64,000 bases of DNA from a bacterium. GTDB lineage: Bacteria; Patescibacteriota; Doudnabacteria; UBA920. Where the stretch lies: the NCBI GenBank assembly GCA_016699995.1, contig CP064996.1, forward strand, positions 412,330 to 476,329. Direction: 5' to 3'. Below the pieces are notes generated by a model. It was given only the letters and a program-made list of their open reading frames with translations. It searched no databases and was not told where the DNA came from. Below, in pieces: positions 10,008-20,077 of this stretch (position 1 is its first letter; every line of letters starts with the position of its first letter). Position numbers and translations under genes: made by a program.

Positions 10008-10080
10008 GCCGTTGTAGCTCAGTTGGTAGAGCATCTCCATGGTAAGGAGAAGGTCTGCGGTTCAATCCCGCACAACGGCT
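10008..10080 (+). tRNA. tRNA-Thr (anticodon GGT)
   Basis: Cloverleaf folds by hand: acceptor GCCGTTG/CAACGGC, D arm GCTC-AGTTGGTA-GAGC, anticodon arm TCTCC-ATGGTAA-GGAGA, T arm TGCGG-TTCAATC-CCGCA, CCA encoded. Confidence 0.85.
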
Positions 10081-10096
10081 CCATGAAAGAAAACTT

Positions 10097-10120
10097 AACC
10101 CGCCTAGTGGCGGGTTTTTG
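10097..10120 (+). terminator. rho-independent terminator after tRNA-Thr
   Basis: CCCGCC-TAGT-GGCGGG followed by TTTTT. Confidence 0.7.
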
Positions 10121-10240
10121 ATTTGGTGAATTTGCCGTTTATGCCGATTTTGCAGATGAAAGTAGAGTATGGGAGAATTGACAAAACCATCCTTTTATAT
10201 TATAGTTAGCGGTTATTATCAATTTTTTAGGAGGAAAAAG

Positions 10241-12136
10241 ATGAAAGACTTAAAGCTATTTAATACTGTGCAGCCTGTTCAGTTTGTTAACGAAGAGGAT
10301 GCTCGTTTTTCCGACTTGCAAGATCGCATTGGCCTATACTCCTACAAGCTTGTGGATCTAGCTGAATCTAATCTTGAGGAAGTGCAGGCTCGTCAGTCAA
10401 TTTTGATGTGGCTGCTAAACAATAGTTCATTATTGGAAAAGTCATTCTTTAGATACGGGATGAGTGGATCCATAGATGGCTACAAGAGTGATGCGACGAT
10501 TCCAAGAAATGCTAGCAGCTTTCTAGCTTACGCACAGTTCATCTTAGAGAAACGAACAGCTTTTTGGCAACGTATCAAACAATTCAATAGTATCGATGAC
10601 TCTTTGTATCGTTTGCCTCAGCGCATTCAAAATTTAAGCAATTACCTTGCGACTGAAGGTGCTGTTAAGTACGAAGAAGAGATGGCTCTGACCAGGCGGA
10701 TGATCGCCGAATTGCGCGAGAGTACGGCGATTCAGGGGGTATTGAAATTCTCAGTGGAAAGCAGAACCCATACCGTAAGGTTTGAAAAAGATGAATCATG
10801 CTATGGTACTTGGTATTACCATCCTTGTGTTGATCCGCTCTTGGATCCTTCCTCGGGGGCGGTGGTCAAGTTCTTGAACAAAATCAAACCAGTCCGCTGG
10901 CTAATCAAGAAGACAAAGGATGCAATCTTCTACGTGAAGAAAGGAGTTGCTCAAATCCGCGAAACCCCCGAATCTATCATCGAGGACGTTCGTATGTTCC
11001 TGGTTAAGAAATGCCAGGAGGATGCCGATTTTGCCGCTTTAGGTAATTGCTCCATCACCGTCGGCTATGTGTTTGACCATACTGGCTTGACTGTATCGCT
11101 GCTGGATTGGAAATACAACAAAATTAGTTCCCGCGGCAGAGAGCTGTATGAGCCTGATCACGGCCTTGCGGTGCGAGAGCGTTCGGCGGACAAAGTTTCC
11201 AAAAAAATGAGCCAACTCCTACGGCTCCGGTATAAAAAGCAGCTCGATGTTTTGGCGGATAAGGTGTTTGTAGAAAACTGCGGACCGATCGAAATTCCTT
11301 GCAAGAATGCCCAACAGGCATTTGCCGATTTGAGTTTCCAGGATATATGGGATCAGTACGAGGAAGAAATCTCCGATCTTAGACAATGGCAAAAGGATGT
11401 AATTGCTCTCTTCAAGGATTTGGGTATCTATTCGGACCTGGCTCACATGATTATGGAACTGGAATTGCCGTATTGTTTTCCAAAAATTGTTGAACAAGGC
11501 GCTATACAGTTTGAGCGATTCTATCCCATTCGTGTTAGGACAGAGGCTAAGACCTATTGCGAACCATTCAGCGGTATCGAGATAGACGACAAGGTTGTGA
11601 ATATTACCGGTGCAAATGGGTCAGGTAAGTCAACCGTGATGTTGGCCGTTCTAGACAATTTAATGCTGGCTCATTGCGGCTTACCTGTCTTTGCAGCCGA
11701 TGCGCAGGTCATTTTGCTCGAACATATTATGCTGAGCTTTTTGGATCGCGATTCCGATAAAAGTACATTCACCGCCAAATTTGAGAAGGACGTTTTTACG
11801 ATGCAATCATTGGAGAAACTTTCTAAAGCTCAGCGGGCTAAGACGTTGATTATCAACGATGAGCTGGGTTCGGCTACGGATCCAGTGGAAATGCTCGATC
11901 TGGCAAAAGAGTATTTGATGTACCTTTATGATCTAGGGGCTCATAGCATTACTTCTAGTCAGATCAAAGAGCTAGGGATCTTTGTGGAGTCGGCGGAGTC
12001 AGGGGGCATCGGCAAGAACCTCGTCATCGACAAAACTTATACAATCAAGCCTGGCTTGGAATCTGGCCGACCCAAGGAGGTGGCCAAGCGACTGGGCTTT
12101 GATGAAATCATTAAGCGTAAGGCTGTCGCAGCCTAA
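10241..12136 (+). CDS. MutS-family P-loop ATPase (MutS ATPase domain V plus C-terminal helix) lacking mismatch-binding and Smr domains
   Basis: Walker A ITGANGSGKSTVMLAVLDNLMLAHCGLPVFAADAQVILLEHIMLSF matches GPNMGGKST...AQ.G..VPA of MutS. Walker B LIINDELGSATD. C-terminal YTIKPGLESGRPKEVAKRLGFDEII resembles the MutS Y.l.pG.a..S.gi.vA.l.G.p tail. Start at 10241 follows GGAGGAAAAAG. Confidence 0.65.
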   Translation: MKDLKLFNTVQPVQFVNEEDARFSDLQDRIGLYSYKLVDLAESNLEEVQARQSILMWLLNNSSLLEKSFFRYGMSGSIDGYKSDATIPRNASSFLAYAQFILEKRTAFWQRIKQFNSIDDSLYRLPQRIQNLSNYLATEGAVKYEEEMALTRRMIAELRESTAIQGVLKFSVESRTHTVRFEKDESCYGTWYYHPCVDPLLDPSSGAVVKFLNKIKPVRWLIKKTKDAIFYVKKGVAQIRETPESIIEDVRMFLVKKCQEDADFAALGNCSITVGYVFDHTGLTVSLLDWKYNKISSRGRELYEPDHGLAVRERSADKVSKKMSQLLRLRYKKQLDVLADKVFVENCGPIEIPCKNAQQAFADLSFQDIWDQYEEEISDLRQWQKDVIALFKDLGIYSDLAHMIMELELPYCFPKIVEQGAIQFERFYPIRVRTEAKTYCEPFSGIEIDDKVVNITGANGSGKSTVMLAVLDNLMLAHCGLPVFAADAQVILLEHIMLSFLDRDSDKSTFTAKFEKDVFTMQSLEKLSKAQRAKTLIINDELGSATDPVEMLDLAKEYLMYLYDLGAHSITSSQIKELGIFVESAESGGIGKNLVIDKTYTIKPGLESGRPKEVAKRLGFDEIIKRKAVAA

Positions 12137-12140
12137 ATAT

Positions 12141-12177
12141 AAAACCTGTTCTGAAGTTCAGAACAGGTTCTTTTTAT
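12141..12177. terminator. bidirectional intrinsic terminator between the convergent MutS-like and HD genes
   Basis: AACCTGTTCTGAA-G-TTCAGAACAGGTT 13 bp stem with a flanking T-run. Confidence 0.8.
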
Positions 12178-12186
12178 TTACTTTGC

Positions 12187-12801
12187 TTATTTTGATTCAG
12201 CAGCGGGGGACGCGGCGCAGCAGCGCTTGGCTCCGAGCCATGAATCGTGCCCTTCTGCTGGGTGATTGTACCAGATCCGAGCGCTGGCCACGTCTGCCAT
12301 GTGGCATAGAGCGGCCAGTTCGTTCATAACTCTGTTGCGGCTGGAATAATCCTTGCCTTCGCCTTCTACGTACTTCATTGCATTCAGTTGCATATCGTTG
12401 AGCTCAATTCCGTATTTCTTGAGCAGCGCCATGCGGAATTTATGCTGAGCGCGCTTTTGGGTAAGATGAGGTTTTACATGGAGCACGCCGTCTTCGTCGA
12501 TGTCGTACTTAAAAGGTTTTTCGACATCATGTAGAAATGTAATCAACAGCACGTCTGATAAAGTAAAAGACAGTTTTCTGTAAGCAGATAAAGTGTTGTA
12601 CAGCACCATGCCGATATTCATGATTTCGGCGATGTGATCATGGTAACCGCCGGGCCAAGCTTGGTGGTTGTTAGTCGAGCCCTGGGTTTTTTTGAATAGA
12701 TCAAAATTTTCTTTGTATAAGCGTATGCATCCCAGCTGATTGGGGCCGTGTATCCAACGCAACAGATCGTGCACAGGGTAAGATCTTTGCAAAGCAGTCA
12801 T
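12187..12801 (-). CDS. HD-domain metal-dependent phosphohydrolase
   Basis: H...HD...D motifs: GGYHDHIAEI, FLHDVEKP, LCHMADVAS. The track ORF (to 12933) runs upstream through the tRNA-Tyr exon. The real start MTALQRSYPV at 12801 follows a GGAGGAAT SD. Confidence 0.7.
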   Translation of the reverse strand: MTALQRSYPVHDLLRWIHGPNQLGCIRLYKENFDLFKKTQGSTNNHQAWPGGYHDHIAEIMNIGMVLYNTLSAYRKLSFTLSDVLLITFLHDVEKPFKYDIDEDGVLHVKPHLTQKRAQHKFRMALLKKYGIELNDMQLNAMKYVEGEGKDYSSRNRVMNELAALCHMADVASARIWYNHPAEGHDSWLGAKRCCAASPAAESK

Positions 12802-12852
12802 AATTCCTCCAGAAAAAAGTGAACTAAGTTTAGCAAAATTTTGCGGGCATTT

Positions 12853-12879
12853 CAAAAAACACCCTTGCGGGTGTTTTGA
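12853..12879 (-). terminator. intrinsic terminator downstream of the minus-strand tRNA-Tyr
   Basis: Minus-sense AACACCCGCAAGGGTGTT hairpin followed by TTTTTTG. Confidence 0.6.
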
Positions 12880-12882
12880 TGG

Positions 12883-13158
12883 TGGGCAGGACAGGATTCG
12901 AACCTGTGAAGGCACAAGGCCGGCTGATTTCACTTTATCCTAAAGTTACCTAAAGGCGTGGACTATATCTTCACCATTGCAGGTGTCCCGGTATCTAGTC
13001 TCTACGGCGCTCTCATGATTGTGAGTTCCCACGGTATTGCCCTTGTCTTACGACAGTCGGGTTTCACCGTTATCCCGGAAAGTTTATCGTACAGTTCTTG
13101 TTCCCGTACGAGCTGCATTTTTACAGTCAGCTGCGTTTGACCGCTTCGCTACCTACCC
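12883..13158 (-). tRNA. tRNA-Tyr (anticodon GTA) interrupted by a ~192 nt group I intron in the anticodon loop; mature tRNA about 84 nt
   Basis: Minus-sense exon 1 is GGGTAGG-TA-GCGA-AGCGGTCAA-ACGC-A-GCTGA-CTGT (13158..13123). Exon 2 is AAA-TCAGC-CGGCCTTGTGCCTTC-ACAGG-TTCGAAT-CCTGT-CCTGCCC-A-CCA (12930..12880). Joined, they give a class II tRNA near-identical in architecture to E. coli tRNA-Tyr (long variable arm, anticodon loop CU-GUA-AA, CCA encoded). Confidence 0.7.
12931..13122 (-). ncRNA. group I self-splicing intron within tRNA-Tyr
   Basis: 5' exon ends in U, and CUGU pairs with intron GCAG to form P1 with a U.G at the splice site. Intron ends in G (…GGATAAAGTG). Contains J6/7-P7 GUAGAGACUAGA and P7 3' strand GAAGAUAUAGUCC, closely resembling the Azoarcus and Tetrahymena group I cores. 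Confidence 0.65.
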
Positions 13159-13173
13159 GTAGCTAACTGTAGA

Positions 13174-13202
13174 ATTCTAACTCATTTTGGGCTTTTTGGC
13201 AA
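13174..13202 (-). promoter_or_regulatory. candidate promoter for tRNA-Tyr (TTGCCA-N17-TAGAAT)
   Basis: Minus-sense -35 and -10 boxes with a 17 nt spacer, ending about 15 nt upstream of the tRNA 5' end. Confidence 0.45.
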
Positions 13203-13460
13203 GAATTGTTGGTTATAAAAGAAAAAAACGCTGTGGAAGCGTTATAAAGGTGGGATGCGAGAATGGGTCCGACTTACCCTGAGAAAACGCTGGTATAGTT
13301 CGGATTCGCGCATGGTGGAGGATATATCCTCCGGTGGGTTGTTATGGTGGGGTTTGTTAAGGTGGGATAGCTTTTCAGCTACTTTCAGAATACCCCTCGG
13401 ACTGGACAATGTCAAGGGTTTATGTTAAACTTTGAAAGTTAATTTAATAGCTTAAACCGG

Positions 13461-13533
13461 GCCGGCTTAGCTCATCCGGTAGAGCAACGGTTTTGTAAAC
13501 CGTAGGTGGTCGGTTCGAGTCCGACAGCCGGCT
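13461..13533 (+). tRNA. tRNA-Thr (anticodon TGT)
   Basis: Acceptor GCCGGCT/AGCCGGC, D arm GCTC-ATCCGGTA-GAGC, anticodon arm ACGGT-TTTGTAA-ACCGT, T arm GTCGG-TTCGAGT-CCGAC, CCA encoded. Confidence 0.85.
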
Positions 13534-13558
13534 CCAGCCAAAATATTAAAGATCAGAT

Positions 13559-19721: not shown

Positions 19722-20077
19722 GCTTCAAGCAGACTCGTAAGCCGAATTTTGTTTTTAAGCGATAATCAATCTTGGCAGCTTGTTACCAAACTGCTCGTGC
19801 GCCCTACCAAATTTGGGCTTGCACTCAAGTAAGAATTTAGCCGTTTCATCCTCTGCATCTCTGCAGTGATTAATCCTCAAGCAAGCTTGTAGGATTCCTT
19901 TGCATTTCTGCGCCGGCGTCACTGTTCGCATCTCGTAAGTTACCTTAGACGGGTGTTACCCGCTACTAGTTGTTAAAAGCTCATATGATACCTTCAACGC
20001 GAGTGTTCGGACTTTCCTCTCTGGCCCTCAGCCTTGCGGCATAGTTCCAGAGTAATCGCTCGATCTGCTTAAAGCTC
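19722..20077 (-). ncRNA. rnpB: RNase P RNA, bacterial type A
   Basis: Minus-sense reading gives the P4 5' strand GAGGAAAGTCCGAACAC and the P4 3' strand ACAAAATTCGGCTTA. Also AGCGGGTAACACCCG and CAGTGACGCCGGCGCAGAAATGCAAAGG, matching E. coli CAGUGCAACAGAGAGCAAACCGCC. P1 pairs 5' GCUUUAAGCAGAU with 3' GUCUGCUUGAAGC. No ORF in the track across these 535 nt. Confidence 0.8.

Follow-up and report, generated by a model that had tools for sequence, protein, structure and literature searches.

Covariation supports a minimal group I intron between U35 and A36 of a tRNA-Tyr(GUA) gene in a Doudnabacteria genome

The 35/36 insertion site of bacterial tRNA group I introns was first reported via tFind, in a study that raised the number of known tRNA/site classes from 4 to 21 (Williams 2020, bioRxiv 10.1101/2020.01.27.920355). 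It is now regarded as the characteristic site in Patescibacteria, accounting for 19 of the 28 cases in a set of 4,934 complete genomes, and two 35/36 introns, those of tRNA-Asn (GCA_016700035.1) and tRNA-Asp (GCA_001029755.1), underwent precise GTP-dependent self-splicing in vitro, while an omega-G-to-C mutant blocked exon ligation (Nakagawa et al. 2026, mSystems, PMC13011429). Here, we analyse a tRNA-Tyr(GUA) gene on the minus strand of a 64,000-nt stretch (the window) of the Doudnabacteria genome GCA_016699995.1, in which an initial annotation made from sequence had noticed a group I intron in the anticodon loop. The locus shares the features of the patescibacterial class, namely a Patescibacteria host and insertion between positions 35 and 36 of a tRNA whose anticodon carries G34-U35. 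The 276-nt locus (13158..12883) is identical at 276 of 276 positions to the Tyr (GTA) 35/36 entry of this genome in Table S3 of the published survey, which places it in Doudnabacteria on the minus strand at 425209-425487, with the intron at 425260-425451; Table 1 lists it as "GCA_016699995.1 Tyr (GUA) 35/36" (PMC13011429). The locus is already known, and the initial annotation was a correct catch, not a discovery. Its remark that a Tyr host with a 35/36 split is unusual holds for the classical literature and no longer holds since tFind (Williams 2020) and Nakagawa et al. 2026. In the published survey the Tyr intron is listed only, without structure, covariation or assay (PMC13011429). The ARAGORN/tFind position of the intron is given as 35/36 in Table 1 and as 36/37 in Table S3 (PMC13011429); the latter appears to be a raw sequence index, with 36 nt before the intron, and not canonical tRNA numbering.

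The minus strand of the window was read from 12700 to 13400. The two tRNA halves and the intron between them are given in Table 1. When joined, the exons form an 87-nt RNA that ARAGORN folds into a canonical class II tRNA-Tyr(GUA), with a 7-bp acceptor stem containing one G.U pair, a 3-bp D stem, a 5-bp anticodon stem closed by the loop CUGUAAA, a long variable arm and a T arm. The discriminator A73 lies at 12883 and is directly followed by an encoded CCA. The cloverleaf, the GUA anticodon, the long variable arm, the 3-bp D stem and A73 are those of a bacterial class II tRNA-Tyr. The initial annotation had placed the two halves 192 nt apart on the minus strand, and its coordinates, length and U...G boundaries were all correct; the cloverleaf that it expected was reconstituted by ARAGORN on the spliced 87-mer. 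With the -i option, ARAGORN also called tRNA-Tyr(gta) i(37,192) on the unspliced DNA, while default ARAGORN and the Rfam tRNA model gave no call at the locus. The predicted spliced junction reads ...GCUGACUGU/AAAUCAGCC... (the slash marks the splice site here and below). Because the intron begins with A-runs and exon 2 with AAA, the boundaries can be shifted by 1-3 nt without any change to the mature tRNA; site 35/36 is set only by the U(-1)/omega-G rule, and junction reads alone cannot separate 35/36 from 36/37-38/39.

The intron shows the hallmarks that the initial annotation had listed, a 5' exon ending in U, a CUGU/GCAG P1 with a U.G pair and a terminal G, and all of these are invariant in 24 of 24 sequences of the alignment described below. 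The wobble pair at the 5' splice site is formed by U35 (13123) and G at 13116. An Rfam comparison aligned RF00028 over its full length (model positions 1-253) to 13134..12939 of the minus strand, with 31 bits (gathering score 50) and E-values of 3.4e-6 for a stretch of 451 nt and 4.9e-4 when the entire window was compared with all families. At the gathering threshold there was no RF00028 match in the window, so that the check proposed in the initial annotation had a mixed outcome, a full-length alignment with a low E-value but a score below gathering. The RF00028 seed holds no bacterial sequences, and cut-offs of 18-20 bits have been used for bacterial tRNA introns (Williams, bioRxiv 10.1101/2020.01.27.920355); a sub-threshold score is therefore expected for such introns and is not counter-evidence, and it explains why default tRNA and Rfam scans miss the locus. 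The core motifs GUAGAGACUAGA (13004..12993) and GAAGAUAUAGUCC (12972..12960) fall on the RF00028 consensus, where the alignment puts GUAGAGACUAGAUA on J6/7-P7 and GUGAAGAUAUAGUCC on J8/7-P7. These motifs had been called near-identical to those of the Azoarcus and Tetrahymena ribozymes; what stands is a match to the Rfam consensus, against which the comparison was made. The pair GAGACUA/UAGUCC aligns to the model P7 and carries a G-C pair beside a bulged A. This pair, G13000-C12961, occupies the guanosine-binding position of the group I consensus and would form the G-site. A P3-P9 core with a P3/P7 pseudoknot and a P4-P6 domain can be drawn, in which the distal P5 stem is capped by GUAA.

Table 1. 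Features of the split tRNA-Tyr locus, with pairing of the intron helices across the alignment
Feature	Position	Strand	Details	Cells paired	Pairs with compensatory changes
tRNA-Tyr exon 1	13158..13123	-	36 nt, GGGTAGG...CTGACTGT, ends in U35; full sequence GGGTAGGTAGCGAAGCGGTCAAACGCAGCTGACTGT; acceptor 5' strand, 3-bp D arm, anticodon-stem 5' strand, C32 U33 G34 U35		
tRNA-Tyr exon 2	12930..12880	-	51 nt, AAATCAGCC...CCTGCCCACCA, encoded CCA included; A36 A37 A38, anticodon-stem 3' strand, long variable arm, T arm, acceptor 3' strand, A73, CCA		
Group I intron	13122..12931	-	192 nt, no open reading frame, starts AAAAATGCAGC, ends ...AAAGTG		
P1	13113..13126	-	C32-U35 (13126..13123) with guide GCAG (13116..13113); loop AAAAAU		
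P2	13088..13110	-	7-bp hairpin, 9-nt loop GAACAAGAA	99.4%	7/7
P3 5' strand	13075..13080	-	pairs with 12986..12991; pseudoknot with P7	97.9%	3/6
P4-P5-P6 domain	13006..13070	-	P4 ACGGU/ACCGU, J4/5 GAAA, P5 CCC/GGG, then P6/P6a		
P4				100%	3/5
P6				97.9%	
P6a				88.5%	3/4
P7 5' strand	12996..13002	-	GAGACUA, A13001 bulged, G13000 pairs with C12961	100%	invariant
P3 3' strand	12986..12991	-	preceded by J7/3 (GAUA)		
P8	12972..12985	-	4-bp hairpin CACC UGCAAU GGUG	97.9%	2/4
J8/7 and P7 3' strand	12960..12971	-	AAGAUA and UAGUCC		
P9	12939..12956	-	hairpin, GUAA tetraloop, two tandem U.U mismatches in the window copy	84.5%	5/7
omega-G	12931	-	last intron base; G in 24 of 24 aligned sequences		
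Putative sigma-70-like promoter	13202..13174	-	TTGCCA-17 nt-TAGAAT; agrees with the consensus at 10 of 12 positions; tRNA position 1 follows about 15 nt downstream		
Intrinsic terminator	12854..12877	-	ACACCC-GCAA-GGGUGU and U5; -13.1 kcal/mol, z = -4.15		
Terminator-like hairpin	13227..13243	-	upstream of the tRNA promoter		

A search with a pattern of J8/7, then G/AAATC, then a T-loop covered a single genome for each GTDB species. It returned 36 loci, among them 23 tRNA-Tyr(GUA) genes that are complete and carry their intron where the window gene does, and a twenty-fourth cut by a contig end. The homologous introns have lengths of 188-237 nt and share 63-89% identity with the window intron, and the exons of one locus, L017, are identical to those of the window. 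The hosts belong mostly to Patescibacteria, or candidate phyla radiation (CPR): Moranbacteria, Saccharibacteria, Doudnabacteria, Yanofskybacteria and Parcubacteria. We aligned the window intron with its 23 homologues and scored a group I structure derived from one member of the alignment, the window sequence. This structure paired in 91.5% of 1218 cells, compared with 36-45% when the 3' partners were slid by 1-3 columns. Changes on both sides were seen in 29 of 51 pairs, and none of 500 shuffles reached the observed value in any of five measures. As listed in Table 1, compensatory changes were spread over the helices, with P1 and P7 invariant throughout the alignment; the distal P5 stem is badly aligned across homologues and paired in 53%. 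The covariation supports the foldable P3-P9 core on which the initial annotation had staked its claim. Together with P1, omega-G, the RF00028 alignment and the published assignment of an identical sequence, it upholds the placement of the intron between U35 and A36. These results support the assignment of the feature, at the sequence level, as a group I intron splitting tRNA-Tyr(GUA).

A few metagenome-assembled genomes (MAGs) with the Tyr intron are labelled Omnitrophota, Bdellovibrionales, Gammaproteobacteria or Planctomycetia. The tRNA-Tyr exons and introns of L040, L041, L047, L048 and L020, which come from such MAGs, are near-identical to those of Moranbacteria and other CPR. Either these contigs are mis-binned or mislabelled, or the Tyr intron is present outside Patescibacteria.

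Twelve of the 36 loci were set aside as non-Tyr. At least ten of these (L016, L022, L024, L025, L030, L032, L034, L038, L039 and L045) have the end GUGGUAAG/CUAAG and look like IC3-type introns of tRNA-Arg(UCU)-like genes, from hosts in Desulfobulbaceae, Desulfovibrionaceae, Chromatiales, Blastocatellia and Omnitrophota. At these ten or more loci GAAATC lies inside P9 and the boundary had been mis-set by ARAGORN; we rejected their long "3' exons" as a genuine oddity. For the Arg(UCU)-like introns ARAGORN boundaries were one to two bases off, and some genes were misnamed SeC or Ser. A search of viral contigs (IMG/VR) for the core plus G/AAATC gave 11 loci, none of them in tRNA-Tyr. The viral matches comprised phage tRNA-Leu(UAA) introns, one ambiguous class II tRNA (L004) and introns in protein genes. 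The tRNA-hosted ones are L004, L006, L010 and L011, and closely related protein-gene introns, which carry endonuclease-like open reading frame (ORF) sequence upstream of the core, are L003, L005, L009 and L012.

The closest described relatives are the Asp(GUC) and Asn(GUU) 35/36 introns, of 196 and 234 nt. Like the window intron, both are inserted after U35, use a CUGU/GCAG P1, share the AGAGACUA...AGAUAGUCC core and have a P9 tail of about 29 nt ending in G. They differ in their host tRNAs, and when aligned pairwise they agree with the window intron at about 60-66% of its positions. The Asp intron (GCA_001029755.1) and the window intron have the same minimal layout, without P7.1/P7.2, and the same GCAG guide. 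In contrast, the Asn intron (GCA_016700035.1) has a P7.1/P7.2-type insertion, with 59 nt between the P7 strands compared with 29 in the window. More broadly, the P7 strands are separated by 29 nt in the window (J7/3, P3', P8 and J8/7), by 37 in the validated Asp intron and by 59-74 in the IA1-labelled or validated Asn introns.

These comparisons do not place the intron in one subgroup. A covariance-model classification put no Patescibacteria tRNA intron in IC and nearly all in IA (PMC13011429), yet the window intron lacks the P7.1/P7.2 insertion that is a structural hallmark of IA. It has the IC3-like minimal layout, with P2 only, no P2.1, P5abc or P7.1/7.2, and a GNRA L9 docking on a P5 receptor. 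However, its L2 is GAACAAGAA, its P8 is a plain 4-bp hairpin, its tail measures 29 nt compared with 48 nt in an IC3-labelled Leu intron, and the GACCAC...GUGGUA 3' extension of IC3-labelled bacterial tRNA introns is absent. Because the L2, P8 and tail features of IC3 are missing, we did not assign it to that subgroup. IA-labelled and IC3-labelled introns are not told apart by pairwise identity either (0.56-0.77), and we describe the intron as a minimal member of the patescibacterial 35/36 family, placed in neither IA nor IC3.

Two classical introns show how far the resemblance extends. The Azoarcus sp. BH72 pre-tRNA-Ile(CAU) intron (IC3, about 205 nt) is reportedly, like the window intron, compact, ORF-less and inserted into the anticodon loop, with P2 present, no P2.1, P5abc or P7.1/7.2, and an L9 tetraloop on P5. 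Its GUAGAGACUAGA and GAAG..AUAGUCC motifs are near identical to those of the window, the direct comparison being with the Rfam consensus. It is said to differ in its site (36/37 instead of 35/36), in its guide sequence and in having 11-nt receptors in P5 and P8 with GAAA in L9 and L2, where the window has GUAA with CC:GG and an L2 that is not GNRA. The self-splicing tRNA-Leu(UAA) intron of cyanobacteria and plastids (IC3; 249 nt in Anabaena/Nostoc) likewise interrupts the anticodon loop of a class II tRNA, with P1 formed from loop bases stacked on the anticodon stem, but it lies at 34/35, is longer, has AAGAGAGAGUCC as its J8/7 and belongs to a different host phylum.

The peripheral elements of the Tyr introns were compared across the alignment. 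L9 is GUAA in three introns, those of the window, L017 and the Omnitrophota-labelled L020, and all three have a CCC:GGG P5. Of the 20 introns with a GAAA or GGAA L9, 18 have a P5 of GCUAAG...UAUGC or CCUAAA...UAUGG, which resembles the 11-nt GAAA receptor. The L9 tetraloop co-varies with its putative P5 receptor, in about two independent events only, since the window and L017 are close relatives. The pattern is consistent with the GNRA-receptor preferences reportedly described by Costa and Michel. L2 is a GNRA tetraloop in 22 of 24 Tyr introns, and the enlarged 9-nt loop occurs only in the window and L017. Tandem U.U mismatches in P9 are common to the window, L017 and L014, and the window P9 alone folds weakly, at -4.6 kcal/mol. 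P10 comprises at most 1 bp and is not conserved across the alignment.

Taken together, the window very probably carries a functional tRNA-Tyr(GUA) gene into which a minimal ORF-less group I intron is inserted between U35 and A36. Transcription would run from the gene's own promoter to an intrinsic terminator, as their consensus matches suggest, and the intron would fold into the P1-P9 core indicated by covariation. C32-U35 would pair with the GCAG guide, placing a 4-bp P1 directly on the intact anticodon stem. As in other members of the family, free guanosine bound in P7 would then attack after U35, the terminal G (12931) would occupy the same site, and exon 1 would attack after this G, ligating U35 to A36 and restoring the loop CUGUAAA. 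RNase P would remove the short 5' leader. With P10 essentially absent, exon alignment probably relies on the tRNA body. In the Anabaena pre-tRNA-Leu intron, exon alignment is said to depend on the tRNA body. By analogy, the Asn and Asp sister introns support self-splicing of the Tyr intron. This mechanism is well founded in homology, covariation and the published assays of the sister introns.

Several observations weigh against this reading. The published splicing assays cover the Asn and Asp 35/36 introns only (PMC13011429), the RF00028 score of 31 bits lies below the gathering score of 50, and the search pattern itself accounts in part for P7 and J8/7 being invariant among the homologues. 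In addition, the family's weakest periphery is that of the window copy, with an L2 that is not GNRA, U.U mismatches in P9 and a P10 of at most 1 bp. These degraded peripheral contacts would fit a real group I intron that is inefficient alone and needs a protein cofactor, an RNA chaperone or unusually high Mg2+, as would the merely modest folding advantage of the entire pre-tRNA over shuffled sequences (z = -2.53). Nevertheless, the L9(GUAA)-P5(CC:GG) contact is apparently intact and co-varying, the Asp intron, comparably minimal at 196 nt, needs no protein to splice in vitro, and the Tyr intron encodes no protein. We consider such dependence improbable.

Gene copy number bears on a further possibility, that the locus is a decaying tRNA-Tyr pseudogene that has lost splicing while an intron-less tRNA-Tyr serves the cell. 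We found no other tRNA-Tyr in the 64-kb window. Table S2 of the survey gives Tyr = 1 for GCA_016699995.1 both by ARAGORN, which calls the split gene, and by tRNAscan-SE; the latter counted 0 in other genomes where ARAGORN found a split Asn or Asp (PMC13011429). The tRNAscan-SE count is slightly puzzling because the program missed those other split tRNAs; it leaves room for an intron-less second copy and weighs to that extent against a functional split gene. A public contig (L001, described below) that starts at exon 2 would also fit an intron-less sequence sharing the 3' half. Against decay, ARAGORN, which calls the split gene, counts one Tyr only, the catalytic core agrees with the consensus at every position, the exons are flawless and the same as those of L017, the helices are held by compensatory changes across 24 lineages, and the gene has its own promoter and terminator. 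A pseudogene is thus very unlikely, and on the simplest reading of the published counts the split gene is likely the only tRNA-Tyr of the genome. That the resemblance is accidental, with unrelated DNA or a 60-aa plus-strand ORF as the real gene, could be argued from the sub-gathering RF00028 score and the silence of default tRNA finders. It is refuted by the full-length model alignment (E = 3.4e-6), the strong covariation and the identity to the published entry; dozens of homologues occupy the identical tRNA position, the ORF has no Pfam match and its frame is not conserved. We regard it as next to impossible.

We also scanned metagenome contigs host-agnostically for GTAGAGACTAGATACC...RAAGATATAGTCC, which gave at least 120 stretches. 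Judged by the first bases of the 3' exon, the matches listed were hosted by tRNA-Asn (66), tRNA-Asp (34) and tRNA-Tyr (13), with 7 other or truncated. The fourth GUN tRNA, tRNA-His, was not found among the 120 matches listed; three "His" calls by ARAGORN were rejected as Asn or Asp by their 3' exons. All Asn, Asp and Tyr cases among these matches use YUGU/...GCAG. In a crude neighbour-joining tree of 106 introns and about 210 columns, without support values, Asn, Asp and Tyr hosts were interleaved, which hints at switching among tRNAs that share C32-U35. We tentatively hypothesize, as a possibility short of an even chance, that one ORF-less lineage moved repeatedly among the tRNAs with C32-U33-G34-U35 (Asn, Asp and Tyr) by GCAG-guided reverse splicing and not by endonuclease homing. 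In this hypothesis the Tyr version would be far more widespread than the published single case and often sit in the sole tRNA-Tyr, with the L9/P5 swap as a record of fold upkeep. The Tyr version was found in at least 24 species-level genomes, as well as in the 13 metagenome matches. If the hypothesis is true, the Tyr intron often interrupts a sole, hence essential, tRNA-Tyr gene, and the exchange of GUAA/CC:GG for GAAA with an 11-nt-like receptor records how a minimal ribozyme keeps its fold.

The locus matters chiefly as a check on annotation quality. Neither default ARAGORN nor the Rfam tRNA model detects the gene, nor does RF00028 at its gathering score, so that a standard pipeline would report a genome without tRNA-Tyr and might call the spurious 60-aa ORF. 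It is also a further case of a reduced-genome bacterium apparently dependent on a ribozyme for an essential tRNA, a case already made for the phylum. What we add is a covariation-backed structure of the Tyr intron, evidence for a tetraloop-receptor swap and the finding that Tyr copies are common in CPR genomes and metagenomes.

The initial annotation had also proposed a TTGCCA-N17-TAGAAT promoter and terminators on both sides, and these signals were located (Table 1). The promoter function would follow from the consensus match. The downstream hairpin was not listed by our terminator scan, probably because A/U pairs extend the stem into the U-run. The upstream hairpin would insulate tRNA-Tyr from upstream minus-strand transcription. 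The antisense 60-aa ORF (12958..13140, plus strand) gave no Pfam match, and its frame is not kept open in homologues, in which stop-free antisense stretches span 37-76 aa; on these two grounds its earlier labelling as a decoy is fair. Further upstream, a promoter-like TTGACA-17-TATTCT (13415..13387, minus strand) and the hairpin at 13243..13227 bracket a unit of about 150 nt (13227..13415, minus strand) with the palindrome GGAGGATATATCCTCC and a 23-codon ORF (MRESELYQRFLRVSRTHSRIPPL); this unit matched no Rfam family at E <= 1.

The neighbouring gene at 12187..12801 (minus strand) had been labelled "HD". Its product carries the H..HD..D-like motifs YHDHIAEIM and FLHDVEK, but it gave no Pfam match at E <= 0.01, so that Pfam does not confirm the label. 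The exact product occurs on one public contig only, L001 from Logan SRR11674018, which is the only other public contig with this gene and is 100% identical to window positions 10034..12930 over 2,897 nt. L001 begins precisely with base 1 of tRNA-Tyr exon 2, and its other end lies within a tRNA-Thr(GGU). A de Bruijn-graph break at this point is expected if the sample holds a sequence other than omega-G joined to AAATCAGCC, which could be an intron-less allele or the spliced product. Exact protein look-ups for further contigs of the SRR11674018 sample, made in search of an intron-less allele, found nothing.

Elsewhere in the window, a full-length class A RNase P RNA (RF00010) lies at 19722..20071 (minus strand), with E = 3.5e-29 and 99.5 bits against a gathering score of 100, half a bit too few for the curated threshold. 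This RNA is presumably the enzyme that trims the 5' leader of tRNA-Tyr. At no fewer than eight homologous loci (L013, L018, L020, L035, L037, L044, L150 and L163) the split tRNA-Tyr has a tRNA-Thr(UGU) on its own strand, a few tens of nucleotides upstream. The window's tRNA-Thr (13461..13536, plus strand) is divergent from tRNA-Tyr, which has its own promoter, and this layout suggests a local inversion.

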